Source: Mytilus trossulus (Eukaryota). Taken from it: 64,000 nt of DNA. The translations under genes were made by a program, and so were the position numbers. Each line of letters begins with the position of its first letter. Within the stretch, counting starts at the first letter, position 1. This document shows positions 23,471 through 58,290 of this stretch, piece after piece. The notes under the pieces were generated by a model. The model had not been told where the DNA came from. It ran no database searches and saw only the letters and a program-made list of their open reading frames with translations. The stretch is taken from contig NC_086382.1 of the NCBI RefSeq assembly GCF_036588685.1, positions 62,001 through 126,000 on the forward strand, read 5' to 3'.

Positions 23471-23968
23471 AAATTTTCTGACAGGTATCGTCAGTGGATA
23501 TTCACTAAAACCCTATTTAATTGTGGGCTTTTTTAGTTATAATATTAATGCAACGATATAACGACTTTGTATGTACAAATTAACACAATGTGACACAATG
23601 TAACTAAAGGTAAACACAAAAAACTTTCAAATATTCGCTCCAAGTCAGATTCACGTCTTCACTCTTCAATCACACGCACTCATTTTCATCAAAGGTTATC
23701 TCGCAAAGGTCGCCCCGGTCTCAACCGGGAATCGGCCGGCGCACGGAAGAAAGTTGTGTCCGTACAGGCACGGAGACCTCACTCGTCTCAACAACGGGTG
23801 ACCCCGACCAGTCGGCACACAGGTACACGGGAAAAACGATATATTGAAAAAAAAAACAACCACGACGTTTATTATGTTATCAGACATTTGGCTCCTGTAA
23901 TAATTTGAAAGTTGAAAGGTTTTTGAAATTTCCTTAATTAAACATGTTTCTTTTTCCTGAAACGCTTG

Positions 23969-25373
23969 CTTATACTGTCCCTGAACACTGTCCAGAGCAG
24001 CATGACGATCGGTGGTTCGACGACTCTTGTCTTAAAACCTGTCCGCCGTCTAAGGGTTGTGGGCCATGTGTTTGGCCAGGGCAGTCTGTATCTGGCGGTC
24101 GGCTCCTGCCTCGCGCATTGTAGTCCCAGCCAGCTTGCGATTCAAACTAGCTGTTAACTTTGGCAAGTCCTTGCCAATGGACTTGCCAAACTTCTGCCAC
24201 TCGGCGTTTACCATCTTGGACATGGACTGCAAAATAACATATATATGTATTAGTTATTTTATCAAAGTAAGTGCAACCTGTAATTACGTAACGATATCAG
24301 TAGCATACAACCATGAAGGATTGCATTTTCTGCATCAAATATACATTTATTGATATTGCTTTCACTAAATTGTTACCCTTTTATTGCCAAAGTGGCCATT
24401 GTGACATTGTTATTTGGTTCACTAACAAATTTTCACTAATTAAATAGCAGAACAAAGATGATAAAATAAATCTTCAGTTACCGAGGATGAAATTTGAGTG
24501 CCAGTCTAAGTGACAAACATGTATTTGGTGTTATTAATTACATGCTTGTCAAATTTCTTGAGGAAACCCAAAACCTCTGCCGTGACCCGTATCGGGCACT
24601 TCTTTCCAGACTTTGCCTCCTTGTGTTCGAACACTTGAAAATGACAGTTAAACTTGTATATAAAAACATATATACTTATACTAATCGCTGTACAACAACA
24701 TCCGACAAACATAAACAAGTGAGGTAGTAGTTATCATGTGATCGGATACTTGTATTTTTTTACGTGTACAGCTGTACGCACCTGGTGCAGCCAGGAAAAT
24801 TAAAGTGCGTATTTGAAATGATTATTTCAGTACAGGCTGAATCCCTACAAGATTAACTAAGGCCAAACGCTCTGGACTTGAGACAAGCGCCAAACATTAA
24901 TAGATGAAGTGTTATTCTCATACTGGCGTTTACTGTTTCGTACCAATTTCTTTAAATGCCACTTGAACAGATTATCAATTGTTTACTTATAATTGCCACA
25001 ATATTGATTCATTACCAAAAGAAACTAAAACTGAACGCATGTAATGTTACTTTCAATATGACTTGAGACGTGGATAATTTATTATGATTTTAATCTATAT
25101 TTACTTACCAAGAGTTCGACATCGTCTCCCTTGGCCGATTTGGCCTTTACCACCTGGTCTTTTGTGAGGTGCGTAATGTCCCCTGCTCTCTTGGCGTTGG
25201 TCAAGATGAGCAGGGTCATCAGACAATTACGCACCTCCAGCTGTTCGGGTTGCGTTAAGTCTCTTGCGCCTGCCTCCTCCAAGATGTTGTGGAGGAATGA
25301 ATGGCGGTCTCCGCTCAAGTAGGATCCCACCATCCATCCCTCTATGGCAAGGTCTAATTCCCCGGCTGCCTGT
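23969..25373 (-). CDS. Tyrosine recombinase catalytic domain (three exons, inactivated)
   Basis: Ordered R (KRAGD), K (HKE), xxRK (LNRK), H (MAH) and the expected Tyr position (TADRF-TAA) match the YR catalytic order R-K-HxxR-H/W-Y. Confidence 0.85.
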
Positions 25374-26208
25374 CTGAAAGAAAGGGAAAAAAAAACGTCT
25401 TAAGCTTATCTATATGCCGTAATTTGTGTGTAATATATTATTTGAAGGTGACGTGACTTCTACTCCAAATGACCAAACAGATATGTGTTTATACACCCGA
25501 CGTGTGTTTCTACGAGTGACGTGTGGTTGGTGTTATTTTCGTCCGGTACTTTAAAGGTATTAAAATTTGTATAAGAAATCAACGAAACATCCCAGAACAA
25601 GGTGATAAACCCAGTGGTTGTAAATAATAATCGATAAAAAAGACATTTGGTGTGGACACATGTTCAAGGATGTGACTTCCTATAAATGTTTAATGTAATT
25701 TGTATCGTATTCTTACCAGTTATACTGGTGAAGGGTCAGGTAAAAAGGGTGATTAAGTAATTCTCTTTAAACCCTTAAGATATAGAGTGTAGAATTGTAC
25801 CTTTCAACTAGTCTCTTGTTGATATCCTCTTTGAGGGACTTTGCCATATTTTTCAACTTATTGACCAGTGTGAGCAGCTGGATTGGTGTGTATTGGATGT
25901 GCCTCATCCATTTGCTGGATCCGGAGAGGTAGTTCAGATAGTTCGCCAGGCTATGAAGGTAGGCCTTCATGCTCTCTGGTTGGATTCTGAAAAAAATGAA
26001 ACATTTTTATGAATTAATTCAAAAAACCCCACATAGAATGAATATATCTTTAATGCGTACCAACAAATAACAGCACTACCCTCTAGTACAGGGGATATGT
26101 ACACTTGTTAGATCAATTGTACTGTATTTTTGTTATGTTCTAATTCTTGGCAATAACCCCCTACACTGCAATCAATAGTTATTACAAGCACCTGATTAAT
26201 AATTTAAT

Positions 26209-26252
26209 ACGCCAGCCGCGCGTTTCGTCTACATAAGAGTCGTCAGTGACGA
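26209..26252 (-). ncRNA. Degenerate hammerhead ribozyme copy in a YR-gene intron
   Basis: CTGACGA…GAAAcgcgcg with the triplet mutated to GGC. A more decayed copy lies at about 26878-26925. Confidence 0.6.
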
Positions 26253-27037
26253 TGAAATAAAAATAGTTATCCAACGAAAACATGTAGTTGAAGTTGAAGA
26301 TCAGTCAGGACTTAAAAATGACACACAGTGGTGGCCAATACGGGTAAGATTATCTATTCCTCGGATAAAATGTGATTTAAGTGTAATATGATTTGTACAT
26401 TTACTGTTGAAATTGCTTATATAAGGATAATTACTTTTTGGCCTGGAGCTGCTGGTCAATGAGACCATTGGCCTCGCCAATTCTTTCCAAGCCATCAATG
26501 GCTCCCTTGGACAAGCTGTCCAAGAAGAAATTGATGGCACAGGTGTGGGCCTGCGTGGTCCCCAGCGATTTCTTGGAACCCGTCGCTCGATCAGAGAGAG
26601 ATTTTCTGAATAAAAGAAAAATATAATCAGATATTATGGTCACCTGTTACAATACAACTTCAGAGGAATTTAATAACTTTCAGTGCTATAAGGTTTACCA
26701 GGTACAGGTGTGAAAGAACCCAATGTTGGGTCATTTGAACACTAATGCACACAATACAGATAGAAATACTGTGTAATAGTATTTCAGTTAATGCATATGA
26801 AAAAAATAATCATAGATAGACGGGACTTTTAAATTTTGTATTTACATAGTTATCAAATGTATCAGGATTATAATTTTGTACGCCAGACGGGCTTGTTGTC
26901 TAGTAAAGATTTATCTCTGACGGTTAAATTCCACAAAATGTAAACAAAAACACAAGTACAGTACGAAACGAAAGAGCCTTGAGAAGCATGTTACAGGAAT
27001 TTTGTGCATAGGTACAGGTTATTTAAATAATACATAC

Positions 27038-27374
27038 CCATAATCTACAATGGAGTGTTGCAGGTGAGTCTTCTCCTCACTCACGAAAACATGGGCCGCC
27101 GACTCGTCACAGGCCTTCTTGTAGTCTGCATCTGTGCGTGTCATGTCGTGACAACGCACAAGATGCAGGTCCAGGCGTATGGTGTCAACGCCGCAAATGG
27201 AACAGACCCGTCTGCCCCCATACTGACGCTTGGCTGGTTCGCGTACAGGGATATAATCCTATAATCCTGCACGTCAACAGCCAAGTGGGCAGGGGTCTTG
27301 ACGGCCAGATGTCGTGTGACATTCACGACGCTGGCACCACACCCTGGGACTGGACAGTCCAATCTCTGTCGTTT
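27038..27374 (-). CDS. Exon with two C2H2-type zinc fingers (frameshifted)
   Basis: CPVPGCGASVVNVTRHLAVKTPAH, then after the frameshift RRVCSICGVDTIRLDLHLVRCH. Exon length is 337 nt but phases 0/2 require 3n+2, consistent with a 1-nt loss. Confidence 0.8.
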
Positions 27375-29069
27375 CTGAAAATTAATCACGAGATGAAAAA
27401 ATTGCCAACGAAACCGTTGATCCACGACGAAGGAACGAAATTAATTGATGTTATGACACTATAATAGTGATTTTAAAACCCATTCATTCGCTTTAAATTT
27501 TGTTTAACACATTACCGTCAGTGTAGGCATTCATAGAACTATTAAAAACTATTCACTATTGTAATGTTCACACTTGGAACATACAATACATATATTATAA
27601 AAAGTAAAGCACAAATTTCCATACGCTTCGGCTATTACGTACAGATTCTTTATACGCTATGGGAACACCATGAACAATTTGTCTGTGTAACTGAATTGGA
27701 ACAATAAAGGTTTCGAGTATCGTCATTGTCACATTTATAAAGCGAACAGTATAAAAACCAGTGTTCAATAGGGATGGAGTTGTAAAGGTTGAAACGATAT
27801 AGGATACGATTAATGTGTTACTGATACCAGTAAATAGGTGTCATGCAGGCATGTACATCTAAGGGTTCAATAGTGATGGTGTCGGTAGGTTCGTATGATA
27901 TAGGTAAGGATTATTGTGTTAATGAAACTACTAGGAGTCATGCATGTCTATCTTAGTGTTCAATAGTGAAGGTCTTCGGTAGGTTAAAACGATGTAGACT
28001 ATGATTAACATCTTAATCATACCAGTACATATGAGTTCTGCATGTCTATTTTAGGGTTCCATAGTGATGATATTCGGGTAAGTTCATACGATGTCGGTGA
28101 TGATTAATATGTTAATGATATCAGTAAATAGCAGTCATGCATGTATATTTCACTATCAAATCGTAAATAAGGATGTCCATGCAACATTATGTATTACTTA
28201 CTGTCTCTCCTGTCCTCTGTTTCGTGTGCGCGGCTCTCTTTACGGGCTGCTGTTTTTCCGTCACCACCACTTCCATAATTTCAACATCTGAATCATCCAC
28301 CTGTGCAGGTGCAGGCACTTTCAGAAACGCCAAAGTGGTCTGTTTCAATTTCTGTTTGGTCATTAAAAAAGTATAAATAACACTGATATGTAGTTCAACA
28401 GAACAAAAACAAATATTTATACGCAACAATAGGTACATGCAAGATACGATGTGTGTCATATGGCAACACCCCTTTCTGGAGATGTTTGTATTCATTTTGT
28501 GACGATGTTGTTTTTTTTTTTTTTTATTTTCCATTGGTTCATTTTCGTAATATTTACATATCATACTTCTTTGGGATTCCCTTCAGTGATTATGGTCATT
28601 ACAATTTGTTAGGACTGTTTGCTATTTATAATATACCTAGCTGTTATACAAGTGTGGGGTTACAAACAAAATAAGTGTTTTAGTTCTGGAAATTTACGCT
28701 CGTATCCAACGTTTGAACGTTTGGTTTGTCTATTATGGATGTCGCCACCCTTTTTTTAATTGTTCATGTTGTGTTTTTAGTTTTCTTTTCGGTCTTTCTG
28801 TTATATACGTTTATTCATTCTTACCTGGGAAGGGCGCTGTGACATCTTTGAAGGGGGCTGTGACGACAGCTTTGAAGGGCGCTGGGAAGGGCGCTTGGAA
28901 CGGCGGGAGGACCGCTGTGGAGGGCGCTGGGTAATATCCTCCCGCCGATCCTCCTTCAATTGTCGAATGTCCTCTTTAGTGATCCGGAATTCGTCCCCGG
29001 ATGCTGTAAAAAATAGTTTACATTAGTCACAGTTCATGCTCTGTGAGATGAATATGCATATACGTATTT

Positions 29070-29295
29070 TATAGATATAGGAAGATGTGGTGTGAGTGCC
29101 AATGAGACAACTCTCCATCCAAATAACAATTTAAAAATTAAACCATTATAGTTTAAAGTACGGCCTTCAACACGGAGCCTTGGCTCACACCGAACAACAA
29201 GCTATAAAGGGCCCCAAAATTACTAGTGTAAAACCATTCAAACGGGAAAACCAACGGTCTAATCTATATAAACAAAACGAGAAACGAGAAACATT
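29070..29295 (+). repeat. Dispersed repeat in intron (gatgtggtgtgagtgccaatgagacaac…aaacgggaaaaccaacggtctaatc)
   Basis: Related copy at about 43640-43930. Confidence 0.7.
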
Positions 29296-32200
29296 TATGT
29301 TCATTTGTGTTGTATATCATTTACTATCATGTATTCCAGTGAAGCAAAATAAGTGGTTATTCATGATATTCTGGTATTTACCGAGTGTCAATAGTGATAA
29401 GAAAACATGTGTTTATGCTTCAAAGGAATATGGTGTCGTCCTTTTATCATGGTTATGGCACTGGGTCTACAACACCCATTTAATAATTCCTTTTATGATG
29501 GACTAATCAGTAGTTTGCGAAAGTATTCATCCTTTTCAGATTCCGCATTACTACTGTTTCAGACAGTATGGTCATTAGTATTAGCGCAGGTGCCGACATC
29601 TCCTCATTTGCAGAGGAAAGAATTAAGGTGTTTACTTACAAAGTATTTCTATCCGGTCGTCCTCGGAATCCAAAGGAACTGAAAAGTATAAAATGATGCT
29701 CTGTCATAATGCACTTTCAACACTTTGTCCACAACTTTAAATTTTACTATCATAGTCTTTATATGAATTTAAAAAGGATTGGTATTAATTGTACTATCAC
29801 CACACTGTTATTATCGTCGCTATATGAATTAAAAAAGGATTGGTATAGTTATATGTATGATTGCATTTTCATTACGATGTAATATTATATTTACCTATTC
29901 TGTCCGTGTCCGGAATGGGGAGGTGTGGTCCTGAAGAAGAAAATGTGTTGTTTTTTTTATTATTAATAACCTGAGTCATAAGAAGCATCACTAAACAATA
30001 TGTACATGATGTATCACCGTTGCAAAATCTCTCTCTCGCTATTGGAAAAAACAAGACAAACGTTTGTGATCATTGCCCATCCTTTTTAATTTGTTTTAAT
30101 TTGATATATAGTTTATGTATGAGTGAATTGATAACACATGAGTTAATCATTGTATTTTATGAAAATCCACAACATCAATTGCTCTTTATTGCACCTGAAT
30201 TTTCGGTATTTCAATGCCAGTTTCATGACCAATACACCTATCGATAATTGTTAAGCGCATAATTTACTTACTACTCCTTTGGAAAGCTGACGGTCGTATC
30301 AGATTCTGCTCTTTTCCTGTTAACATAGAAAAAGGTTAGTTTAATTTAAAGTAGATGATGACGTTTCGTTGAAATTTAACCGTATATGTATCAAATTGGC
30401 GGATACCATTAAATTGTAGTTGATATAATATTGAGGTTTTGGTGATCTTTAAATTCATCTTCTACACCAACAATAAGTCCTTTGTGACCAGCTACCCTTT
30501 TTGTAGTCTCGATTTGTTGAAAATACTCTTCCACTTTAACACATAATTGATCAATAATGACCCAAATAAAGGCAACAGTAGTATACCGCTGTTCGAAAGT
30601 CATAAATCGGTTGAGAGTCAAAAAATTCAGATGCGGGTTACAAATTAAAATTGAGGGGAAACGCATCAGATATAGGAGTAGAACAACGACACAAAAGAAA
30701 CACAACATTAACATGTAACACACACAGAATAGACAATGGCCGTTTTCATTACTGGGTACAGGACATGTTAAGAAGAATTGTTGTTTACTCACTTTTCAAA
30801 GACTTATCCGAGCTGTGATGGTGCAGCTCGGCTGTCACCACTACTGTGTTGTTGTTGGTGGTGGTGTTGGCCTTCTCATCTATTCAATAAAGATATTTGA
30901 AAGTTTTCATTTATATATATGTTTATTATGAATATGACGGAAAAATACAACAATCCAAAACTAATACGTTTTTCACGCGCTAGACGGTTTGTGTAAATGC
31001 AATATTCAATTGATCGGTCTTTCCCCAGCGTTGATAGTAGATCGAGAAAACATGTGATCGTATACATGTAATAAAAGGCAACACCAATTTGCACACACCT
31101 GCTATTAGAGTTTCGCGTTTTTTGAGCTCATTTAGGAATTGACATAAACTTACCAATAGGACACTCAGTGGTTGCGTCTGCCGCAGGCGTTGGCAGGGTC
31201 TGATCATCTGCAATTAAATACATAGGTATGTTATTATTAAAATATTGATAAATAATACAAATCTACAATTAAAGCCGACACGTGATCGTATACATATAAA
31301 GTGATAACCATTTTTGGGCAGAGACAAGGCTATAAAATGTCATTAACTGACCGAGATCTGTCAGTGTATCAAGTTCGTCTGTCTGCTCCTCAGGAGGAGT
31401 ATTGTCTGCCATTAAAAATATTTTAGTGTTATAATTGACCTGTTGATGATTTCTATACAGATACATAGGAAAAGCGGTGATCCGTTGTCATTTGCAACGA
31501 CAGATGATTTGCATGAATCGACAATTGTATTGAAATGTGTTAATCTACAGTTGAGAGAAGGGTGTGTGAAACTGTGATTGTATACATATAATAAAGTGAT
31601 AACACCTTCTTGGCAGATGCATGGAATGACAGCTATCGCGTACGTGAACAGTTTATATGAGGGAGTACGACAGTTCATTGAAAATAAAAGTCTCGTTGAC
31701 TTACCAATGTCAGTGGGTGTGTGGCCTTCTCCCACAGGAGGAGTATTGTCTGCAATTAAAAAAAAAATCGTGTTATAATGGACATATTGATGATTTGTAC
31801 AGATACAAAGATAAAGTGGTGACCCGTTGTCATTTTCAACGGCAGATGATTTGCATGAATCGAGAATTGTATTGAAATGTGTTAATCTACAGTTGAGGGA
31901 AGTAGGTTTGAACATGTGATCGCACACATATAATACATTGATAACAGCTTTTGTAGAGTTCACAGTTCTGCGTACGTGTATAGCGTATATGTGGGGGATA
32001 TGCTTCATGTAGAATTTGGCAAGTAACTTACCAGTAGGATGGACACTGTGGGCATCCTGTGAGAGGTTCAGCTGCTCCAACGAGACATTTAGTGTGTCGT
32101 TTTCTGCAAAGAAGATACGTCCATGTTATAATTGATATATTGTGGAATATTAAAACAAAGTGAAGTAAATGTCCGTAGTCAAATTCTACAACAGATACAA

Positions 32201-33614
32201 CGCATTAATTATCTGTTCAATTGAACCATGTTTGTCCACCGTAAAGAAAAGGAAAAAAGTAAGAATGTAATCGGCTACGTATCATAACGCCGACAGACTA
32301 CTTGCAGCGAAGTATCATCACAGTTTCTTGTTACTGAATAGCGCCGTACGTTACCAGATGATGGGATTAATTTAACAAGTGTCAATGCGTTACCAGGGAG
32401 AGGACAGACATTCCGGGAATCATCATCATCATCACCCGAATCCTGATGGTTTCCGTCCACAGTTCCTGCAATAAAGATTCGTTCATTTTATCTTTGATAT
32501 ATTGAGGAATAATACAAAAATCAGTAAACCAGAGTCCCGAACTCATTTTGACGACACACTATACGCATGCATCAATTTTTCTAATGACACGTGTTTGTCT
32601 ACCATTGACAGACGAAAGAGTAAACCTGAGATCGGCTACATATAATAAAGTGACAATAGCATTGGCACGGTCCGGCCGCCACAGTTGCGCGTCGTTGTAC
32701 AGCATATGTTAAAATGGAATAGTGTTAATTTCAAATTTATCAATGACTTACCATCTTCAATGGCCAACGCCCGCCACTTGTCGCCCTCCTCTGACAGGTT
32801 ATACAGACAAGGCTGTATCTTAAATGATTGTATATCTGCAATAAAGATATGTGCAGGTAACTATTGATACCATAAGGAGTGATAAATAATATGACCAGAG
32901 GCCCGTACTCATTTCCGACAACGGAATATTCGCATCCATCCAAAGTTCTACTCAAGTGTGTTTGTGAAGCGTTAAGAGAACATTGATTAAACATGTGGTT
33001 GCGAGAAGGAAATGTGAAACTGTGATTGTAGACATATAATGAAGTGATAACAACTTCTTGGCAGATGCATGGAATGACAGCTATCGCGTACGTGAACAGT
33101 TTATATGAGGGAATACGACAGTTCATTGAGAATAAATGTGTCATTGACTTACCAACACCAGTGGGTGTGTGGCCTTCTCCGCCGATCTCGTCGGGCTGTT
33201 CCTCAGGAGGAGTATTGTCTGCAATTGAAAATATGTTAGTGTTATTGAACCTGTTGATGATTTATACAGATACATAGAAAAAGCGGTGATCCGTTGTCAT
33301 TTGCAAGGACAGATGATTTGCATGAATCGACAATTGTATTGAAATGTGTTAATCTATAGTTGCGAGAAGGATGTGTGAAACTGTGATTGTATACATATAA
33401 TGAAGTGATAACACCTTCTTGGCAGATGCATGGAATGACAGGTATCGCGTACGTGAACAGTTTATATGAAGGAGTACGACAGTTCATTGAAAATAAAAGT
33501 GTCATTGACTTACCAACATCCGTATCAGTGCCCATCTGGCCTTCATCCACAGAGTGAATATCTGCAATAAAGATATGTGCATGTGACTAATGATACCATG
33601 GGGAGTGATAAATA

Positions 33615-33831
33615 CCGTATAGCGGGTTATTTTCGCGGGGTGTAAATTTTCGCTTATTTTCGCGGATAGAACAAAATCGCCAAAATAAATTCCGCCAATT
33701 TAAATGTGTACATGCAAAGGTAATGTTAAAAATGTCGAATCCGCCAAAATAATAATCGCCAAAATTTTTCGTATACCTTATTCAATGAAAATCGCGAAAT
33801 TTTACACCCGCGAAAATAACCCGCTATACGG
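33615..33831. mobile_element. Tc1/mariner (pogo-like) MITE, 217 bp, TA TSD
   Basis: TIR CCGTATAGCGGGTTATTTTCGCGGG…; TA at 33613-33614 and 33832-33833; an empty paralogous site (gataaaTAatttgacc) lies at about 34565-34580. Confidence 0.92.
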
Positions 33832-36800
33832 TAATTTGACCAGAGGTCCGTACTCATTTCCGACAACGGACTATTGACATCAATGCAAAGTTCTACTCAA
33901 AAGTGTTTGTGAAGCGTTCAGAGAAGAATGATTAATTATTTGGTTGATCTACAGTTGAGAGAAGGATGTGTGAAACTGTGATTGTATACATATAATAAAG
34001 TGATAACAACTTCTTGGCAGATGCATGGAGTGACAGCTATCGCGTACGTGAACAGTTTATATGAGGGAGTACGACAGTTCATTGAGAATAAAAGTGTCAT
34101 TGACTTACCAACACCAGTGGGTGTGTGGCCATCTCCGCCGATCTCGTCGGGCTGTTCCTCAGGAGGAGTATTGTCTGCAATTGAAAATATGTTAGTGTTA
34201 TCATTGACCTGTTGATGATTTATACGGATACATAGAAAAAGCGGTGATCCGTTGTCATTTGCAACGACAGATGATTTGCATGAATCGACAATTGTATTTA
34301 AATGTGTTAATCTACAGTTGCGAGAAGGATGTGTGAAACTGTGATTGTATCCATATAATGAAGTGATAACACCTTCTTGGCAGATGCATGGAATGACAGG
34401 TATCGCGTACGTGAACAGTTAATATGAAGGAGTACGACAGTTCATTAAAAATAAAAGTGTCATTGACTTACCAACATCAGTATCAGTGCCCATCTGGCCT
34501 TCATCCACAGAGTGAATATCTGCAATAAAGATATGTGCATGTGACTAATGAAACCATGGGGAGTGATAAATAATTTGACCAGAGGTCCGTACTCATTTCC
34601 GACAACGAACTATTGACATCAATGCAACGTTCTACTCGAAAGTGTTTGTGAAGCGTTCAGAGAAGAATGATAAACATTTGGTTGATCTACAGTTGAGAGA
34701 AGGATGTGTGAAACTGTGATTGTATACATATAATAAAGTGATAACACCTTCTTGGCAGATGCAGGGAATGACAGCTATCGCGTACGTGAACAGTTTATAT
34801 GAGGGAGTACGACAGTTCATTGAAAATAAAAGTGTCATTGACTTACCAACAACAGTGGCCTTCTGTCTGTCCTGTGTTGACGGGGTTATCTGGCTCATGT
34901 CTGAAATAAAGATATGTCCATGTTATTATTCATGAGTTGAGGAGTAATAGCCAAAAAATACAAGAGTCCCGAAGTAACGCGTCAGTGTACTGTGTGTGAG
35001 GAGGTTTTGGGGTGAATTGATGTAGTGTTGTTAACTTACCGAAATCCCAGACTGGATCCGACCAAGCCTTTGAGGTGGAGGCCTTTTGGGTGGAGGATAA
35101 GAGCCAGTTGTACGGTGTCGTCCGTCTTGATGAATCTGGTTCTTCTGTAATAGTAAACCCCTTCATTTACATGAAAACTTTAACATGTACAGTTAATGTT
35201 AGTCTAATGTTGTCATTGATAGGAAACGTGTGTTACTTGACGTTATGCAAACATAATAAAAGGGGTGTTGATCTACAGTTGACAGAAGGAGGTTTGAACC
35301 TGTGATCACATACATATAAGACTCTGATAACACCTTTTCGGCACCTACATGGATTGACTGTTTCGCGTACGCGAACAGTGTCTATGAGGGAGTTCATTGA
35401 CTGAGCAAGATGAGTGTCAAATGTTGCTGATTTATACAGATACAAAGGGAAAGTGTTAACCCGTTGTCATTTGCGACGACAGACTACTGCCATGAATCGA
35501 GAGTTGTATTGAAATGTGCTGGTCTACACTTGAAAGAAGGATGTTGAAATGAGTGATAGCATACATATAATAAAATTATAACACATAAAGATATGTGCAT
35601 GCTATTATTGATAAAAATACAAGAGTCCCCAAATGACGCGTCAGTGTACTGTGTGTGATGAGGTTATGGGGTTAATGGATGTAGTGTCATTAACTTACCG
35701 ACTGGCTCCTTTGAGGTGTAGGTCTGTGAGGTGGAGGCCTTTGAGGTAGACTAGGGTCTATACAACTCCTCGGAGGTGTAGGCCTGTGAGTTGGAGGGCT
35801 TTAATGTTGAGGCTAAAAGCCAGTTTTTCGGTGTCGTGCGTCTTGATGATGCATATGGTTCTTCTGTAATAGTAAACCACTTAATTTACATGAAAACTTT
35901 ACAGTAATGTTAGTCAAATGTTGTCATTGATAGGAAACGTGTGTTACTTGCCGTTATGTAAAAACAATGAAAGGGGTGTTGATCTACAGTTGAGAGAAGG
36001 AGGTTTGAACTTGTGATCGCATACATATAATACAGTGATAACATCTTTTCGGCACCTACATGGATTGACAGTTTCGCGTAGGGGAATAGTGTAAATCAGG
36101 GAGACAGACGGTTCATCCTAAAAATTGTCATTGACTTACCAACATCAGTAGCCTCCTGTGTTTCCTGTGTAATGGGGCTCATGTCTGCAATAAAGATATG
36201 TCCATGTTATGACTGATGAGCTGAGGAGTAATTCCCCAAGAATACAGAGTCCCGAAGTCACGCGTCAGTGTACTGTGTGTGTGTGCTTATTACATTAATA
36301 TTATAACAATCCTTTGAGGTGGAGGCTACCATCCAGCTGTACGGCGTGGCTGGTGTCGATGATGGTTGTGTTGTAATAGTAAACCACTTAATCTACATCC
36401 AAACTTTAACATGTACACTTAGTCTTAGTCAAATGTTGTCATTGATAGGAAACGTGTGTTACTTGTCGTTATGTAAAAATAATGAAAGGGGTGTTGATCT
36501 ACAGTTGAGAGAAGGAGGTTTGAACTTGTGATCGCATACATATAATACAGTGATAACCCCCATTTCGGCACCTACATGGATTGACAGTTTCGCGTAGGTG
36601 AATAGTGTAAATCAGGAAGTAAGACGGTTCATCCTAAAAATTGTCATTGACTTACCAACATCAGGAGCCTCCTGTATGTCCTGCGTAATGGGGCTCATGT
36701 CTGCAATAAAGATATGTCCATGTTATGATTGATGAGCTGAGGAGTAATACCCCAAGAATACAAGAGTCCCGAAGTCACGCGTCAGGGTACTGTGTGTGTG

Positions 36801-37566
36801 TGCTTATTACAATAATATTATAACAATCCTTTGAGGTGGCAGCCTTTAAGGTGGAGGCTACCATCCAGTTGTACGGTGTGGCTGGTGTCGATGATGGTTG
36901 TTTTGTAATAGTAAACCACTTAATCTACATCCAAACCTTAACATGTACACTTAGTCTTAGTCAAATGTTGTCATTGATAGGAAACGTGTGTTACTTGCCG
37001 TTATGCAAAAAAAACCAGTTATACATTTAGTATTCTTTCCAGAATTGCATTATCATAATATAAACCTCTTTATCTGCCATTGAGAGTAGAATAGGTAAAC
37101 ATGTGATTGGCTACATATAAAGCAGCTTCTTCCATCAGAGGTTGGCGTCACTCTTCATCGTATGTGATGATATAATTGGGTTATTCAAGAATTGTCATTG
37201 ACTTACCTATATCAGGCAGTGGGTCTGTAGTAAGGGACTGCTGACCTATATCAGGCAATGACTCCTGGCTGGATCTTACAAGCCAGTTGAATGGGGTGGA
37301 TGGTGGTCTTCTGAGTGGTTGTTCCACTGAATTTACATCAAAACTGTAACAGGTATTGTTAAGAGTCAAATGGTGTCATTGAGAGGAAACGTGTGTTACT
37401 TTACGTTATGCAAAAATAATGTTAAACACGTGTTCATTTACATTCACTCTTCCTAATAAATTAGATCACATTTTGCCATAAGGATATACATTGCATTTGA
37501 ACCAAGCATGCTTTAATAAATTACAAACCTGGTGAAGCGACCGACCATCTACCATATATATATATA

Positions 37567-38162
37567 CAACTCGTCTAAACATCAACCCAACAATGTTAGA
37601 TCTGTAAATTTGCTTTCGCAAATTTTTTATTCTTCCCTCGCCGGGATTCGAACCCATGCTACTGTGATATCGTGACACCAAATCGCCTGCACTGCAGCCG
37701 TCCCGCTAGACCACACGACCACCTGGGCTCTACAATAATAGAGCTTTCGCTGGCCGTGTTTTACCTTTCCTCGTCAGTTTTAATCTAGCGGCGTACTACA
37801 GTACATGATATATAAGGCATGAAGATGTTATTGTTACAGATCAGCTAAATTATCTATAGAAAAGGATCCTACAAATTAATGTAATATACAGTCACAGAAA
37901 ATAATTAAGTACGTCTGAGTCAGTGACAACTCTACAACAGATGTATCCATCGGATCGCCATCAATGATGGTGATACATGGCTGTGTACATAATGTATATA
38001 CAACTCGTCTAAACATCAACCCAACAATGTTAAATCTGTAAATTTGCTTTCGCAAATTTTTGATTCTTCCCTCGCCGGGATTCGAACCCATGATACTGTG
38101 ATATCGTGACACCAAATCGCCTGCACTGCAGCCGTCCCGCTAGACCACATGACCACCTGGGC
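37567..38162 (-). mobile_element. tRNA-like direct-repeat element inserted in (TA)n
   Basis: Two 162-bp direct repeats (37567-37728 and 38001-38162), each with an A-box-like TGGTCRTGTGG and B-box GGTTCGAATCC, separated by about 270 bp; (TA)n on both outer sides. Confidence 0.8.
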
Positions 38163-39130
38163 TATATATATATATATATTTTCTTCTTCTTTATTTCGGT
38201 ATAATTGTATAATAACTGTATATAATTGTCCAATACCACCATCCATCCCCCACACCAAGCGAACCACTTTCTCTCGGGTTGTGGATGGATGGTGGCATTG
38301 ATTTTTTTTTATACCACCATACATCATCAAGCCTGCCCAATCACGTTCACTTGCAGTTGGCCTGGATGTCGGCATTACACACTCATATAGAGTAATAATA
38401 CAGTTATTGCCTATTAATCAATTAAAACCAATGGACATTATATTGTCAAAGTATTATAAGTGTCAGCGGTCTCCAACCACAGTTCCGCCTAAGTGTACAG
38501 CGAATGTGAGTCGGTGTGATGGGGTTCATTTTAGTGGTGTTATTGACTTACTAATATGTGGAGATAGCATCTGGTACTCTACACCACTATGGTTATAATC
38601 GGCAGTAAACATAGGTGCATATTATAATGGACATATTGAGCAATAATAAAACAGCACACCAGAGGTCTCTTATCAATTCTGAAGACACAATCTTCGCCTG
38701 AATCCTTGGTTTTAGTGAAAAGTGTTTGTATCGCGTTGGGAGAAGAATGTGTAAACATGTGATCTTCTACATGTAATAAATGGCAAACACCATTTGGAGC
38801 GGCGTGTCATCCAGAGTTCCGCTTAAATGAACAGCGTATGTACGAGGTAATGGTGTTAATGTAAGAATTATCATTGCCTTACCTATCACAAGTGCTGAGA
38901 ATGTCTTTGGAGGGTCTCTCTTCTTAGACATGGCTTCTAAAATAGATTTAAAAAAAAAAATTACCTGTTACATTGAGCGGTTGATGTAACAGCAGTATAC
39001 TACTGTTGCCTTAACTTCCGCCTACACTATATCTGTCAAAATGTAATTGAAGAGTCCAAACGTTTGTTCATGAAAACGATATATTTTCCACTTTAAGTTT
39101 TTCATAAATAATTCGATACACGTGTACATT

Positions 39131-42013
39131 CACAGTGTAGATACTATTCTGTACGCTATCCGGAAGTCGCGATTTTCGAAGCGAGGATTTCAAACTGGTC
39201 AACAGAACGGTTTTGTTTTGGTGCCTTTTCTCATAATCTTTTTACTCCTATATCTATAAAGTGCTTTGCACATCTTAAATGTATGTATAACATCATAAAT
39301 ATGAGTAACTGTAACAAAAACATGCAGTAGAATATAAAATATACGTGTGCATCACACCAACTTCGTAGAAAAAAGTGAAATCGATTGACAATTTTGCTCT
39401 CGTAGTAAAAAGCAAATAATCTTTTATTGCAAATATTTGCATCAGTTAACAGTAAAATATATACTGTTTCAATATTCCTACCGTATTTAAGTAGAATGTT
39501 CGTATTTCAAATAAAAAATATGTTTTCCTTGAGGATCCCAAAATAAATTACTGTACGATCAGTCTAAAACTGACTGTATTCTAGTAGAGATTTCAGATTT
39601 TTTGACTGTATGATCAGTCGTGATTTTGAAGAAAAAAACCAACAATAAATGGAAGTTTTTAACGACCTTGACTGAAAAACAAAGGCAATTTGAAGGTATA
39701 TACGTGTCTATGTGATATTATGATTGTGTCCATGGAACTATAACGTGTGATTTCTTTCATCAGACAATACAAATATATTTCTGATGATTTTAATAGACGG
39801 CAAAATAATTATATTTTGGTTCCGTCAGTCTTACTTAAAATCAAATGCCTAAAAAGCAATACATGATCCGCTTGTGGACTTTGTATTAGAGTGTCGTTGC
39901 AGCTATCTGTTTAACTATTACATTTTAAAGACTATTTACACCATCTGCCGTTGACCAATTAGTGATAACATACATCAAGCCCGTCTCTTTTAAAATGACA
40001 AAAAATAGACAGAGAAAGCTTTGCTTTAAAAATTAAGGTATTGAGGAAAGAATTAACGAAATTATAACCCGCCACTTCTATAGTCCATGTTTTGGAAAAA
40101 AATAAACCACCAGAAAAACTAAATCATAGGTGCACAATGGCATCATTTAATAACGAATATGATGAAGTTTTATAAATACTAATATATGGTAAGTTTTTGA
40201 AAGTTGCATATAGTAAACGGGTACCACCCAATAAGGTAATGGAAAAGTCCTTATCATGGAAATAAAAAAATGATGATTTTTCGAAAAACCAAAATAAGAG
40301 GTACACAATTGAATTAAATGATCAGGAATCTGAAAAAGATTCATTGAGTTATGACAAGTGTCTGAAGGAAGTTGTGGATATAAAATAGGTACGCCCAATA
40401 TAAGGTTATGACAAAGTCCGTATTTTAGATATAGAAACATCAAAAATATTCTCACCAAAAATTCGAAATAGAAGGTCCATAATACATCAATAGAGTAAAA
40501 ATGGAGCAATTTTAGAAAAGTTTAACAATTGGTTTTGGAAGTCACAGTTGGAAAAACCTGATGGGTGCCCCCATATAATGCAATGTTCAAGTCCATATCT
40601 TATATAAAGAAACCCCATAAAAGATTTTTGATAAAATTCGAAATACATTCCTTTTTTATATAAATAAGGCCGCTAATTTTCTCGTTTGAATTGTTTTACA
40701 TTGTCATTTCGGGGCATTTTATAGCTTACTTTGTGATATTGGCTTTGCTTATTGTTGAAGGCCATACGGTGACCTATATTTGTTAATGTCTGTGTTATTT
40801 TGATCTCTTGTGGACAGTTGTCTCATTGGCAATCATACCACATCATCTTTTTTATATTATAATTTATGATACGGAATCCGAGAAAAAATAATTAATAGTT
40901 ATACCAGTGATGGATTCAGGAAAATTGGGATCCGGCGGTTTGAAACTCTTTTTTAACTTTCAATGCATTTGTATGGGAACATATATTTGGAATCCTCTTT
41001 TCTCCTGGATTGGACCCCCTCTCCATTTAAAAATGTCTGGAAACCCCTATGTATATTAAGTGGTTTATGAGAAGATGCGCTTGCAAAACCGGCGAAACAT
41101 GTTGCACCGGTCCAACGGACGAACGGAAAGACGGACTTCATTATCACTATAATCCATCGCTTTACAAAGTGGTGTACAATTGAGTGTGAAAGAGGCAGAT
41201 CTACATCCAAAACAAAGTGAAGGAACTGTGATCAATTATAGGCTACAGTTCGGCCTCGAATGTTTGTAAATTCATGCATTTTTATATAACAATTAAATCA
41301 GTGTGTTTGTACAATTGTAAGTATAACGGAGGACATTTCTGAAACTTCTATAAACAAACAAACCTTTTTCTATTTCAGTCACATTCAAACATCATTATAC
41401 TTAATGTAGTAAGTCGAGTACACCCTATCAAGCTAAAAAATGTTTGAAGTTTACAGGATGTGAATTTATTAAAATACATGTGTGTTCTTTAGAAAAATGC
41501 CATCTTCTAATGTATCGTAAATAACTTTGAAATCACTACTAGAATACAGTGAAATAAAGACTGATCATACAGTTTCAAAATATACAAGCGAGACTGATCG
41601 TACAGTGATAAATCCAAACAAGTGTAATTTTCTTATTTCTGGCTTCAAAGATCTGGCTGAAACTTTTACCACCACTTAGAATATACTTTATTTAGTAAAT
41701 TAAGTCTGGATTTTACGTTAATTTGTACAGTAAGGGTGCAAAAAGATTGTTTTAGGTTCACCGACTGCTTTTCTTTAGTGATGCACTTGAAAATCTCTTG
41801 ATTAAAGCAAAGATACGAATAATGAATGTGCTAAATTTAATTATAAACCATTTGTGAATATCGATGTCAGCTGAATTAATCATTAAGCAATGTACAGATG
41901 AACATCTTACCGTTTAATATAGTATATCCAACAAATTTAAAATGTGATCCAAAAAGTTCTCGCTTCGAAAATCGCGACTTCCGGAAAGCGTACAGAATAG
42001 TATCTACACTGTG
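39131..42013. mobile_element. Non-autonomous Transib/RAG-like DNA transposon
   Basis: 55-bp TIRs with one mismatch (39131-39185 and 41959-42013) beginning CACAGTG; 5-bp TSD ACATT (39126-39130 and 42014-42018); paired subterminal inverted motifs ACTGTAYGATCAGTC. No transposase ORF seen. Confidence 0.88.
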
Positions 42014-43423
42014 ACATTGATAACCCAACCTCCAAATATGACATGAATTCAATATTATAATCAAATGTGTCTAACCGTTGAGTGAAGAAGAATGACTAAA
42101 CAGGACTGTGATCGCCTACATATCATAAAGTCAGCAGTGGGAGCGCCCTGCCACCAGAGTTAGTCGTAATTGTACAACATAGGTCAAGATGTAATGGGTT
42201 TAAATTAATAATAGCCATAGCCTTACCAGTCATAGCAGTGGCCTGGCTATTGCCACTGGTTATGATCCAGTTATAGGGACTTCTCCTTGTCTTCTTGGTC
42301 TTTGTGGAGGAGTGTTCTGTGAAAATTACAAAAAAATATATTTACATCTTAACTGTAAGATGTTAAGCTCAATTGTACGTTTGGCAGAACGAAGTATATA
42401 CACGTGTAAATTGATAAATTTTTAGGCAAATATGACACTTTTCATTTATATATCATTTACATTTGAACATAGCATGGTAAAATACAAACCTCTTGGGGCC
42501 ACCGACCATCTCCCACTTTGTGATTGCACTGTATCTCCTGAAGAAATAATGTATATATTTTTATATTTTTTTTGGTAATACCGATATCACTGTATTACTC
42601 CTGTTGATAATTTGTGAGTAGCCCCCATCTCCTATTTTTGGTTTATTAGTACACCTTCATCAATCGAAAGGCATGCACCTAATATTCATGATATGCACAA
42701 TCATTTGTAATCAATTGCTCCTGCGTGTTAATGAAAAGGCTACCAGTTTGTTGTATTGAAGTTCAAGTTCAATGACAATGTAATATATGATATAACTTGT
42801 AATTGGTTTCCAATAAGTGTCGAAAAAGTTTCGGATGTAATATTTCTCTGAAAAGGAATATTCCAAGTGATTAATATACACTGTGTTTTAAAGACTTTCA
42901 CTTTGTTGATTACTCTAGCGTTTGCTTGATATAAAAACCAGTGTTTTTTTTGGGTCTGTTCTTATGCATATTTTTTTTTGTAGCAATTGTGCAGTGGCGT
43001 ATTTTGCTTAGGCCACGCTATATAACAGTTGGTTAGAAACGTATATATTTGGTAATGGAATAGTACGTACCTGTTTCAGTTGGCGTACGGACATTATTGT
43101 TGTGATCTGAAAAAAATGAACAAGTAGTACAATATGTATAAAAATCTAGATGCTGATACACAATAATTTGTCAACTGGACATTATCAACAAACAAATGCA
43201 AACAGCCGTTGTAATTTTTAACGTTTTTATACTGATATTTTCATTTTTGATTTTTTTTTAATGCGAAGTCATATCGAGATATGTTAAATTTAACAGGCCA
43301 AATATCATTTTAAATAACTTGAGCACGAAAACTATCAAAAAAATTACTTACTTGTGCTAAAGAAATAGTTAATCCATCACTTTAAGAAAATTTTATTCTC
43401 GAGGCGGAGCTCAATAACACCAG

Positions 43424-43438
43424 TTTAAATATGGCGCC
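43424..43438 (-). promoter_or_regulatory. GGCGCCATATTTAAA motif (E2F/CHR- or YY1-like) upstream of the YR gene's candidate first exon
   Basis: Lies about 70 bp upstream of a strong donor (gtaagt, 43351-43346) and resembles the motif at 23426-23440. Confidence 0.4.
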
Positions 43439-44614
43439 CAGATTTGATTAATTTTCGAAATATAAAATCCAAATAAAAAAAAACCGAACTTCTTCCTTTA
43501 TCTATTATGGCATCGTTTAACGACGATCGGTTACAATGTTGTTTAAACGTAGTTTATAGCTTTAATATACAGAATTGAATACAGTTTGTTTCAAAAAGAC
43601 AAAAAGGAAATTCTTATTAGAGTTTTATGAATTTATAAAAGTAAACCATTATAGGTAAAAAAAAAATCAATGTCTTCAACACGGAGTCTTGGCTGACACC
43701 GATCAGCAAGATATAAATGACCCAAACATTACTAGTGTAAAACCACTCAAACGGGAAAACCGACGCGGTCTAATCTATATAAAAACGAGAAAAACTTATG
43801 AACCACATCAACAAACTACAACTACTGAACATCAGATTCCTGACTTAGGACAGGTGCAAACAATTGCAACGAGTTTAATCATTTTAATTGTATCAAACAT
43901 TCGACTTTATCTGAAACAATGGTGTAACATTGTATTTATAATACCCCGTTTTAGATAGTCAAACCTGACCCTTTCAAATACAAGGAGAAAAAAAACATAA
44001 CCCCATTTCAGACAAATGAGCTGAAAATGTAACCCTGTCCGTCTTAACATACCCGTCTCGGTATCATATTTATCCAGTAAGTATCCACCAGGTACAAGTA
44101 AAATGGCAATTGGAGAAGTGTCACACAAAACAACCATTTCATGTATGGATTTCCTTACCGTTTTTGTTGTATAAAAATGGTGTCCAAGTACCCATCGAAT
44201 AGGGAATTAGTATAAAAAGAATTCAGAGTACGTGTTTAATTATTTAATAAAGCAAATAATGATAGGGGTTATTTTTGTTAAAAAGGATGGGGGTGCGTAC
44301 ACCCATTACGCCTTTGCGTGGACCCGCCCCTGCAAATTTCAATAATTTCCTGAAGCTAGATGTCCTTGTCTGCAAACGCTAATTGAATAGCATGTCCTTG
44401 ATATTCATTCCAGTGTCTGGTAAAAAAGATTGGACACGATAAAAAAAAAATAACCTCTTAATATGTTTGCCTATATAGATACTATTAATTTACGCCATCT
44501 TTAGTTTCATACGAATTGATCGAAAAATATCGGTGAGCTCACCTTTTTAGTGAACTCGCAAGTTCCAAATTGAAAGAGTTGGTATTGCTTTGTTTCATAA
44601 AAAAAGAATGACCA

Positions 44615-50205: not shown

Positions 50206-51600
50206 AACAAGAGGCTCTCAAGAGCCTGAATCGCTCACCTTAATTATTTTGGTTAAATCTCTCATCAATGATTATTTTGGCTTTTTAATTTATTTAAATG
50301 TTTTTTGAATCGTCCTATTTTCTTCAAAATCCAAAAAAAATAATCATTTTCTCCTATGTTTTATTTTAGCCATAGGAGCTATGTTTCTTGACATACAAGG
50401 AAATAAAATATAAAATTTATACTAGATACTCTGAAACTCATTTAGCCTAATTTTGGCTGAAATTGATACAGCAGTTTCAAAGGAGAAGATTTTTTAAAGT
50501 AAGTCAACATGATGAACAAATTGTGAAAAAGTCTTTAAAGGGCAATAACTCCTTAAGGGGTCAATTGACAATTTTGGTCAAATTGACTTAATTGAAGATC
50601 TTACTTTGCTGAACATTATTGCTGTTTACAGTTTATTTCTATCTATAATTTTATTCAAGATAATAAACAAAAACAGCAAAATTTCCTTAAAATTATCAAT
50701 TCAGGGGCAGCAACCCAACAACAGGTTGTCTGATTCATCTGAAAATTTCAGGGCAGATAGATCTTGACCTGATAAACAATATTACTCCGTGTCAGATTTG
50801 CTCTAAATGCTTTGGTTTTTGAGTTATAAGCCAAAAACTGCATTTGACCCCTATGTTCTATTTTTAGCAATGGCGACCATGTTTGTTGATAGATCATAAC
50901 TTCGGATACAATTTACAAACTAGATACCCTAAGGAACATTCAGTTAAAGTTTGGAAGTATTTGGCCCAGTAGTTTCAGAGGAGAAGATTTTTGTAAAAGA
51001 TTACTAAGATTTACGAAAAATGGTTAAAAATTGACTATAAAGGGCAATAACTCCTAAAGGGATCAACTGACCATTTCCGTCATGTTGACTTATTTGTAAA
51101 TCTTACTTTGCTGAACATTATTGCTGTTTACAGTTTATCTCTATCTATAATAATATTCAAGATAATAACCAAAAACAGCAAAATTTCCTTAAAATTACCA
51201 ATTCAGGGGCAGCAACCCAACAACGGGTTGTCTGATTCATCTGAAAATTTCAGGGCAGATAGATCTTGACCTGATAAACAATATTACACCATGTCAGATT
51301 TGCTCTAAATGCTTTGGTTTTTGAGTTATAAGCCAAAAACTGCATTTGACCCCCATGTTCTATTTTTAGCAATGGCGACCATGTTTGTTGAAAGATCAAA
51401 ACTTCGGATACAATTTATAAATTAGATACCCTAAGGAACATTCAGTTAAAGTTTGAAAGTATTTGGCCCAGTAGTTTCAGAGGAGAAGGTTCTTGAAATA
51501 GTTTACGACGACAGACGACGACGGACGACAGACGACGGACGACGACGGACGCCAAGTGATGGCATAAGCTCACTTGTCCCTTCGGGACAGGTGAGCTAAA
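50206..51600 (-). mobile_element. Helentron/HINE element (same family as 17411-19176)
   Basis: Terminal hairpins agctcacttgtccc-ttc-gggacaggtgagct and aggctct-ca-agagcct, (gac)n microsatellite and internal ~500-bp duplication. Confidence 0.8.
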
Positions 51601-51649
51601 AAGTAGCCAGAATGAACTCATAAGTATTATAATTGCTAACTTTTTTTTC

Positions 51650-52490
51650 AGAACAACTTATACAGGACATTTTAAGTGCTAAGTTTTACACCATAATGGC
51701 TGATAAAGTAACGTCGCACAACCAAGAATTCATGCCTTTGTGGATAAGATTTGTAGACAAGGAGAACAACATCAGAGAAGAATTTTTGGAGTTCTGAACC
51801 ATAAAGAGAATAACTGGTCGAAAGTTGGCAGATAAACTTTTGGATTGTTTGAACCAGTAAGGAGATTCCTCTGAATGATATGCGGGGTAAATGTTATGAC
51901 TGACCGACCAACATGTCAAGTGACCGCTGTGAACTACAGAGATGTATACGTGAACAAGCACCTTTAGCGCCATACACCAGATGCAACAGCCATGCCCTTA
52001 ATCTGGTTAACCAGGTATTCCTGCATGCAAACAAACAGATGTAGCCCATACTCTTACAAAAATGAAAGAAGTCTGTATGTTCTACAAATACAGCCCGAAA
52101 CGTCAAGGACTACTGGAAAGTATCATTGAACAATCCGTGTCGTCAACAAACAAGAGAAAGCCTCTATTAGATCTTTGCAAGACACGATGGGCAGAAAAAC
52201 CTTGCGCGTATTCCCATTTCTATGACTCTTATGTGTTTGTAATAGTCTTTAGAATTCATGTATTAGGCCTACATAAAGACAAATATGATCTTTACTTGTA
52301 TGATGAACCCTGGGATAACAACACCAAGCATGATGCGGTTTTTCTTTTGAACACAATAACAGAATTAGGCTTTATCATTTTGTTCATGACCATCTACCAG
52401 GGTCTTTCTGCATTAGCTGGGATAAGTGTCGGACTTAAGCGCAATGCCTTGGGTGTATATGACGCATTTTCCAAAGTAAAACTGTAAAAT
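51650..52490 (+). pseudogene. hAT transposase relic (ZMYM1/THAP12-like)
   Basis: FYTIMADKVT…IRFVDKENNIREEFLEF…RGKCYD*PTNMS…YTRCNSHALNL (CxxH)…SPKRQGLL…LCKTRW. Confidence 0.85.
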
Positions 52491-57899: not shown

Positions 57900-58290
57900 T
57901 TGTGTTTTAGCTGAATGGACGGGCGTAGACATTATGTTTAAGCTTAATGGACGGGCGTAGACATTGTGTTTTAGCTGAATGGACGGGCGTAGCCATTGTG
58001 TTAGGGCTGAATGGACGGGCGTAGACATTGTGTTTTAGCTGAATGGACGAGCGTAGACATTGTGTTTTAGCTGAATGAACAGGCGTAGACATTGTGTTTT
58101 AGCTGAATGGACGGGCGTAGACATTATGTTTTAGCTGAATGGACGGGCGTAGACATTGTGTTTTAGCTGAATGGACGGGCGTAGAAATTATGATTTAGCT
58201 GAATGGACGGGCGTAGACATTGTGTTTTAGCTGAATGGACGGGCGTAGACATTATGTTTTAGCTGAATGGACTGGCGTAGACATTGTGTT
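57900..58290 (+). repeat. 32-bp tandem array (ACATTGTGTTTTAGCTGAATGGACGGGCGTAG)n, about 12 copies
   Basis: Direct periodicity. Confidence 0.95.

Follow-up and report, generated by a model that had tools for sequence, protein, structure and literature searches.

Symmetric mini-exons as the likely source of a length-variable, predicted-disordered tail on a zinc-finger tyrosine recombinase of Mytilus trossulus

Several known systems resemble the locus described here. Crypton DNA transposons were described by Kojima and Jurka in 2011 (PMC3212892), and CryptonV is named in PMC8869645 and PMC5753468; according to these three sources, animal Cryptons are reported without terminal repeats and some CryptonV families are target-specific, for microsatellites. 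The micro-exon genes (MEGs) of schistosomes have exons of 6-81 nt, mostly 15 nt, which account for most of the coding region; the product is short, carries a signal peptide and is secreted, and dN/dS is high (ratio of non-synonymous to synonymous substitution rates; PMC4350168; bioRxiv 10.1101/2023.06.21.545858). In the Argiope MaSp2 and flagelliform silk genes, the introns are iterated and homogenised, which was proposed to promote unequal crossing-over (PMC9779670). Finally, symmetric exons that arose by internal tandem duplication encode disordered regions (PMC3632108; PMC3342872, on Dscam). We analysed a 64,000-nt stretch of the genome of the mussel Mytilus trossulus, hereafter the window (contig NC_086382.1, C10:62001-126000), which carries on its minus strand an array of 24 mini-exons ahead of the exons of a recombinase gene. 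We consider it probable that these mini-exons are spliced, frame-preserving modules of a predicted-disordered tail on a zinc-finger tyrosine recombinase, likely Crypton-like, and that the length of this tail changes by gain and loss of units at the DNA level.

Numbered from position 43106 downward, the mini-exons are exons 1-24 and the downstream exons are 25-32 (Table 1). All 24 exons of the preliminary description were found on the minus strand, with AG before and GT after; each is 36-165 nt long (median 54 nt), divisible by 3 and of phase 1 at its ends, and 18 of them do not exceed 81 nt. Joining them by script produced one frame interrupted only once by a stop, in exon 8, versus 23 and 46 stops in the other two frames, and this open frame carries on into exon 25. 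The array of about 24 symmetric phase-1 mini-exons is thus real. Exon edges were also examined with a frame-blind caller, based on generic, untrained splice weights: on the sense strand of the array, 14 of 18 calls were divisible by 3, versus 0 of 1 on the antisense strand and 5 of 26 outside the gene (Fisher p 1e-4); with less strict thresholds, the figures were 15/22 versus 12/51 and 19/29 versus 27/90, the duplicated units behind all these figures not being independent. Together with the frame-keeping indels and the spliced joints reported below, these calls rule out that the exons were picked by chance. The array peptide amounts to 525 amino acids (aa), about half of the coding region, and contains four copies of a [ST]PxNW[LI] motif common to exons 3, 5, 8 and 9. 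Its proposed disorder is borne out as a prediction (FoldIndex below 0 in 449 of 475 scoring windows). No hydrophobic segment was detected in it, the maximal 19-residue hydropathy being 0.17, and exon-by-exon Pfam scans gave nothing above cut-off. Three decayed units add to the exons first listed: two of the exon-8/9 type, with dead acceptors near 36902 and 36370, and a half exon (Table 1).

To what extent these exons are used was assessed with contigs from six public runs (X1-X6) of 23 listed, which were compared with the gene copies; the RNA status of the runs is guessed, and joints are counted among those listed for X3-X5. Spliced joints at the predicted exon edges were present in three RNA-like runs (X3, X4 and X5, from two studies), while X1, X2 and X6 behave as DNA, with introns covered and no exon joints among those listed. 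The X3 joints connect exons 2-3, 3-4, 9-10, 10 to a unit of the exon-14/18 type, 15-16 and 16-17. For X4, one 459-nt contig, on a copy called C14b, runs through exons 20-21-22-23-24-25, and another contig joins 26 to 27; for X5, one 305-nt contig links 18-20-21-22-23-24. Overall, a spliced joint was found for 18 of the 24 mini-exons, 14 at their own position and 4 (exons 11-14) through a near-identical type. Exons 1, 5, 6, 7, 8 and 19 have no joint among those listed, but exons 5-8 were called independently in a M. edulis gene model, P0157. The preliminary description had named two outcomes that would speak against it, absence of spliced reads on these exons and a transcript ending before exon 25; neither was found, since 18 exons are joined in contigs and the 459-nt contig of X4 reaches exon 25.

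The downstream exons encode a zinc-finger and tyrosine-recombinase protein with a predicted Cre/Xer fold, as modelled on the sister copy of chromosome C4. In this copy, 581 aa can be read from exon 25 without a stop, and the core is listed as M. trossulus LOC134716416; relatives occur in M. galloprovincialis, M. coruscus and M. edulis. Mercenaria, Pinctada, Mizuhopecten and Lineus have more distant ones, and 391 relatives were counted at E 0.001. The core model (P0001, 97 aligned relatives) has a predicted local distance difference test score (pLDDT) of 90.8, and its best PDB folds are Cre, XerH and lambda Int (E 1.6e-5 onward); a single-sequence fold of the protein was unusable (pLDDT 36). 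A profile search with the core matches XerC and XerA structures (XerC-like, 5.4e-8). R217, G219, K248, R324 and Y359 are each found in at least 90% of the 97 aligned relatives and all are kept in the C4 copy; going by position and the known motif, not by superposition, we take R217, K248, R324 and Y359 to be the catalytic Arg, Lys, second Arg and Tyr. None of the 24 proteins scanned (5 + 19) matched DUF3504, giving instead weak Phage_integrase matches below cut-off, so that the gene is not a CryptonA. The zinc-finger motif of exon 27 is shared with relatives and, because full-length relatives carry low-complexity N-termini of 400-550 aa ahead of the zinc fingers, the long tail is a family trait. 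Thus fold, profile matches and conserved residues support the attachment of the array to a tyrosine recombinase, the preliminary description having spoken of a transposon enzyme.

The array bears the marks of repeated duplication. Seventeen of its 23 introns fall into one blastn homology group, and exons 6/7, 11/13 and 12/14 are recent twins, 91-98% alike. The units are chimeric: their acceptor sides constitute three families, and one donor-side intron block, 93-98% alike, comes after exons 10-14 and 18, that is after three old exon types, whatever the type. In a phylogeny of the intron units, these donor-side blocks make up one clade with near-zero branches regardless of the preceding exon. 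Exons 10-14 are the youngest part of the array, with three exon types each followed by this same block. Serial exon-intron duplication is therefore supported by the twin exons, the intron homology group and the donor-side clade. The accompanying statement that introns are homologous while exons diverge was right about the introns, but it overlooked the recent twin exons, and the apparent contrast arises in part because the units are chimeric.

Comparison of gene copies revealed how the array varies. Near-identical copies of the window gene lie at C4:96.17-96.19 Mb and twice at C14:81.49-81.55 Mb (C14a and C14b), and a more distant, rearranged copy is located at C10:77.86 Mb; there are 5 close matches in the genome. 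Exon number and order differ among all four close copies (window, C4, C14a and C14b), a variation whose search had been recommended at the outset. Between exons 9 and 15, the order is 10-11-12-13-14 in the window, 10-11-11-10-11-11-14-11 in C4 and 10-11-14 in C14b; C14a is without exons 11-18 and 22-26, and C14b without exon 23. The M. edulis model P0157 has yet another exon order and one extra module, and other modules are repeated in M. coruscus P0003 and P0004. Part of an older copy survives at C10:146-147 kb, with introns 80-89% alike and exons of 42, 69 and 84 nt. The variation demonstrated is gain and loss of units at the DNA level, through shared intron blocks, and not variation by splicing.

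Selection appears to act on the frame. Among the copies, 9 of 9 indels in mini-exons are divisible by 3, versus 2 of 30 in introns (p 2.6e-7) and 2 of 12 when only intron indels of at least 3 nt are counted; exons 12-14 and the extra units of C4 were left out of this count as not assignable, and end gaps were ignored. The pN/pS ratio (proportions of non-synonymous and synonymous sites that differ; uncorrected, pairs not independent) is 0.27-0.67 for the mini-exons in six of six copy pairs and 0.11-0.27 for the core in five pairs. Positive selection on the mini-exons was considered and, with pN/pS below 1, not seen.

Unequal crossing-over between shared intron blocks is the likely mechanism by which whole exon-intron units would be gained or lost. 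If it occurred inside the donor-side block, units would be swapped, added or dropped in frame, following the same logic as proposed for spider silk introns (PMC9779670). The tail may serve as a length-tolerant linker or regulatory region, on which selection would mainly keep the frame; a full-length protein is presumably made, from an element that would be mobile now or have been so formerly. Transposon-type recombinases are usually regarded as compact. In the mussel recombinase, interchangeable exon units make up a tail of over 500 residues; their gain and loss can be followed in four copies and in other Mytilus models, and the gene offers a clean natural case of symmetric exons and homologous introns building a disordered region.

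The window copy itself is a pseudogene, by 5' loss, a frameshift and stops. Its exon 31 has an acceptor that is not AG and a stop, and its exon 32 has two stops, one of them at the conserved Tyr position. The lost 5' part, of about 1 kb, held an upstream coding exon of 124 nt that is present in C4 and C14a and matches M. coruscus P0003 at 64-67%; the dispersed repeat found in its place gave 79 matches in the genome, from 40 candidates that were scored. Both C14 copies, C14a and C14b, bear frameshifts and partial deletions. A LINE-like element (long interspersed nuclear element) with two long open reading frames (ORFs) lies just upstream of the 5' similarity boundary of the C4 copy (C4:96.165-96.171 Mb; L010:5361-L011:900), and may hide the first exons of that copy.

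A number of observations weigh against the reading that we favour. The four close copies have over 10 kb of downstream flank in common, as segmental duplicates do, and transposition is therefore not demonstrated; the 5' end matches only two places, C4 and C14a (in one assembly), and no element termini or target duplications were found. No copy in the assembly is fully intact (in C4, exon 16 contains a stop and the acceptor of exon 18 is dead), no start codon was located in any copy, and the annotated C4 protein begins inside exon 27. The runs are only guessed to be RNA and the contigs do not come from the window copy, so its transcription is not demonstrated; the joint 25-26 is not among the joints listed, the contig ends being compatible with it, and no single contig spans both the array and the catalytic exons. 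The deletion junction of C14a holds a repeat insertion, so that not every loss of a unit is a clean crossover. Lastly, the exon-limited silent divergence described below is unaccounted for by DNA gain and loss.

Of the other explanations, a domesticated, non-mobile subtelomeric host gene that spreads only by segmental duplication, with the same array biology, deserves the most attention, even if we hold it to be rather unlikely. The shared flanks and the low copy number would fit it, as would the homologous N-terminal modules in three other Mytilus species, the purifying selection and the spliced transcripts. But all copies of the assembly carry disabling changes, and the catalytic residues are kept, unlike in the domesticated DUF3504 genes reported in PMC3212892. 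Also against it are further recombinase lineages at the same chromosome ends and scattered fragments of the array. All 19 genome matches of exon 32 (36 candidates scored) are within 0.76 Mb of a chromosome end; they are distributed over five ends of three chromosomes (C4, C10 and C14) and represent three recombinase lineages, the two further ones (about 38% and 25-35% identical) clustering at the same ends. For the neighbouring lineage, at C10:148-156 kb, comparison by eye found five of six intron positions of the core in common with the window gene. In M. coruscus P0003 these two lineages are fused, so they are likely neighbours in that species too. In addition, array fragments occur at six places on C5. 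There is no reverse transcriptase ORF within the gene span, and those nearby look like separate LINE or Gypsy insertions, the element ends not having been placed. The mussel gene points to a poorly described family of animal recombinases, confined to chromosome ends in the M. trossulus genome.

Some of these surroundings merit a description of their own. The second multi-exon lineage (about 38% identical), at C10:148.8-155.9 kb (L031:2766-9930) and in L033-L034 and L038, has acidic N-terminal exons of its own and an intron motif that recurs, and on C10 a remnant of a mini-exon array lies directly upstream of it. The C5 fragments (L052-L057) are isolated pieces of 430-730 nt, 73-91% alike, and the 30 kb fetched contained no recombinase; three of them share one composite layout, as if carried by another mobile element.

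The preliminary description supposed that any subset of mini-exons could be skipped in frame, with the protein N-termini varying combinatorially. In this explanation, comparable to a micro-exon gene, one allele would give many N-terminal variants and the array would have been selected for that; we find it unlikely. The arithmetic allows it, all units being symmetric, and skipping would bypass the stops in exon 8 of the window and exon 16 of C4. In both X4 and X5, exon 18 is joined to 20 although exon 19 separates the two in each of the three copies with exons 18, 19 and 20; X4 also has four markers of the C4 type, among them the dead exon-18 acceptor, where intron 17 is retained. In X3, an exon-14/18-type unit is joined to exon 15 (depth 69) and to exon 16 (depth 33), and exon 10 goes straight to such a unit. 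However, inclusion of exon 19 was never seen: it has no depth in any of four runs and may thus be a silent exon and not an optional one. In X3, the contig without exon 15 shows 4 gap letters within exon 16 and hence comes from another allele or copy. The two X4 joints from exon 11 each link neighbouring exons of C4; the remaining alternative joints agree with known copy layouts or stem from a contig with different alleles, and contigs cannot assign joints to alleles. The joint 18 to 20 is therefore the only skip hard to explain by DNA differences (two runs, one study). A pN/pS below 1 does not favour diversification either. Programmed mix-and-match is weakly supported, and what was claimed stands for the symmetry of the units and for this one skip; exon skipping likely happens at least as a silencing of weak units, as a secondary phenomenon.

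Silent divergence limited to exons was a further feature of the copies. Between the window and C14a, the core exons differ at 99 of 1361 sites (67 at third positions) versus 25 of 1295 in flanking intron, and between the window and C4 at 96 of 1718 versus 29 of 1770 in intron, with a pS of 0.25; for the mini-exons, the counts are 56 of 1294 versus 93 of 4379 in introns. Silent-site differences in exons thus reach up to 25% next to introns differing by 1-2%. The excess over introns is seen for the core in 5 of 6 copy pairs and for the mini-exons in 4 of 6. The differences end at exon edges and span window positions 23936-28351 and 35040-42316 (versus L011, L012, L017, L018 and L022). Versus C4, divergence is patchy, low in exons 25 and 27 and high in 26, 28-32 and 3-9. 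In the neighbouring recombinase lineage, there is only a weak overall exon excess (7.1% versus 5.9% and 5.1%).

Two causes were rejected. Few of the changes are of CpG type (3 of 22 in exon 31, 4 of 33 in exon 32) and no single type of change dominates, which argues against CpG decay; and the copy at C10:77.86 Mb (77-85%) is not a convincing donor, since it matches the window and C4 about equally (3:3, 2:5 and 12:10 for exons 29, 30 and 32). An apparent 14% divergence of intron 28 proved to be an alignment artefact of an insertion in C4, with 4 differences in 448 nt versus C14a. Our best guess is exon-limited gene conversion from diverged relatives, possibly via an intron-less template; assembly polishing may also be responsible. 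If not an assembly artefact, the pattern is a testable case of exon-by-exon gene conversion without intron loss. We may speculate, with little confidence, that a chromosome-end recombinase element diversifies on three levels: reshuffling of tail exons in DNA by way of the shared intron blocks, splice switching, and overwriting of single exons from diverged members of the family via an intron-less RNA or complementary DNA template, the introns being kept. If true, this would explain 25% silent divergence beside introns differing by 1-2%, and it could serve escape from small-RNA silencing.

Still less probable, in our opinion, is that the array forms a separate short transcript which, in some mussels at least, ends before the recombinase exons. 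This could be suspected from X3, where array joints have contig depths of 49-124 with almost no cover over exons 20-22 and 24-32; but missing contig cover is weak evidence, and we do not use this gap as evidence of absence. Moreover, one X4 contig connects all exons from 20 to 25 and another joins 26 with 27; a further X4 contig has 430 extra letters before exon 30, which by their length would be exons 28 and 29 preceded by the final 71-72 nt of exon 27; similarly, by its length, an X5 contig would open with the last 71 nt of exon 27 and extend over 488 letters. As for the integrase of an endogenous large DNA virus targeting telomeric repeats, like that of crustacean nimaviruses, which the chromosome-end location and the domain order (PMC10871703) could evoke, it is very improbable: no related locus was found in viral or metagenome contigs (the viral search using single-protein patterns and covering close relatives only), the long ORFs in 40 neighbouring stretches appeared by eye, with no viral-family scan of them, as retrotransposon-like, other recombinases or unidentified, 8 fetched regions lacked any run of three TTAGGG repeats, and the viral fold matches are generic integrases of 9-17% identity.

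Table 1. Exons of the recombinase gene and insertions in its window copy
Feature	Position in the window	Strand	Observations
Mini-exons 1-3	43106-43071, 42537-42490, 42316-42227	-	AG/GT and frame; joints 2-3 and 3-4 in X3; exon 1 without joint among those listed
Mini-exon 4	38936-38883	-	AG/GT and frame; joined from exon 3 in X3
Mini-exons 5-9	37326-37207, 36700-36656, 36184-36140, 35863-35699 (one stop), 35144-35040	-	AG/GT and frame; joint 9-10 in X3
Mini-exons 10-14	34900-34847, 34519-34472, 34174-34109, 33561-33514, 33218-33153	-	Joints of these types in X3 and X4
Mini-exons 15-19	32835-32752, 32465-32394, 32103-32032, 31749-31705, 31405-31352	-	Exon 19 with donor GTCAGT, skipped in X4 and X5 (one study)
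Mini-exons 20-24	31207-31154, 30879-30793, 30316-30272, 29930-29895, 29678-29640	-	Contigs in X4 and X5
Exons 25 and 26	29003-28825 (phase 1 to 0), 28351-28202	-	Basic/proline-rich linker; joints 24-25 and 26-27 in X4
Exon 27	27374-27038	-	Two Cys2-His2-type zinc-finger motifs; frameshifted in window copy, 337 nt vs 329 in C4
Exons 28-32	26605-26435, 25986-25801, 25373-25109, 24634-24482, 24226-23936	-	Tyrosine-recombinase core, broken in window copy
Dispersed repeat	43214..43575	.	Replaces about 1 kb of the 5' part of the window gene; blastn of window vs C14a
2.9-kb insertion with 61-nt inverted ends, in intron 3	39130..42014	.	Absent from C4 and C14a (intron there 407 and 406 nt)
Repeat insertion cutting an exon-2-like unit	37529..38170	-	Unit of 45 nt, intact in C4; 3' half left at 37553-37529
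227-nt inverted-repeat insertion	33836-33610		Absent from other copies covering the site

Four mobile-element insertions lie in array introns, and those at 39130-42014, 33610-33836 and 37553-38170 are missing from the other copies covering these sites; an insertion at 29071-29293 is missing from C14b. In exon 5, the acceptor used in C4 was lost via a 13-nt deletion, and an in-frame AG is available three bases upstream (37326-37324). Introns 14, 17 and 18 (window 31412-33586) are open for 94-106 codons in the exon frame, with a Cys-rich peptide, and two such introns are retained in the M. edulis model; we take this to be inherited chance and not functional intron retention, as intron indels do not keep frame. 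Intron 26 contains a diverged 99-nt tandem repeat of 3.7 copies (window 27786-28150). Elsewhere in the window, tandem arrays of 21-nt (two types) and 32-nt units occupy 4805-5231, 5714-6089, 9095-9360, 12460-12847 and 57899-58290, and a broken transposase fragment at 51600-52570, shared with C14a and with an inverted duplicate there, has no Pfam match; by its motif, we presume it to be hAT-like.

No description of this mussel gene, or of such an array in a recombinase, emerged from a literature search outside of which were most subscription papers, Repbase Reports and supplements. Like Cryptons, the gene codes for a tyrosine recombinase of a eukaryote in which the catalytic residues are conserved, and no reverse transcriptase was seen alongside; unlike them, it has tandem zinc fingers and, built from symmetric exons, a tail exceeding 500 aa. 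Of a Crypton one would expect dispersed copies that have their termini in common but lie in unrelated flanks; none such were found among the mussel copies (one assembly). The recombinase is likely Crypton-like in a loose sense, CryptonV being known here by description only. With the telomere-associated nimaviral recombinases (PMC10871703), some of which are multi-exon, it has in common the order of C2H2, SAM-like and catalytic parts and the chromosome-end niche, a likeness by domain order and not by a tree; unlike them, no virus genes or telomere-repeat flanks were seen around it. The proposed resemblance to schistosome MEGs holds for the architecture, a succession of short exons, each a multiple of 3, whose skipping keeps the frame, with associated repeats. 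It fails for exon size, share of the coding region and dN/dS: the mussel exons are longer, the array makes up about half of the coding region of a protein that ends in an enzyme, and the mini-exon pN/pS is below 1 in 6 of 6 pairs whereas MEGs have a high dN/dS. MEG products are secreted; the array, in a gene whose start codon was not located, has no hydrophobic stretch, and the DNA-binding core would argue against secretion here. The mussel gene is not a schistosome-type micro-exon gene. It is like the silk genes in its repeated exon-intron units with near-identical introns, and silk also includes alternating types; but in silk structural exons are homogenised, whereas here several old types of exon are rearranged around a single intron block, in a recombinase tail. 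As in tandemly duplicated arrays of symmetric exons, its symmetric, duplicated exons encode a predicted-disordered region; those other arrays are host genes, and in Dscam the exons are mutually exclusive immunoglobulin modules while the mussel exons are used in series. The ingredients are thus known and the host unexpected, for an array that is real, spliced and under selection for frame.

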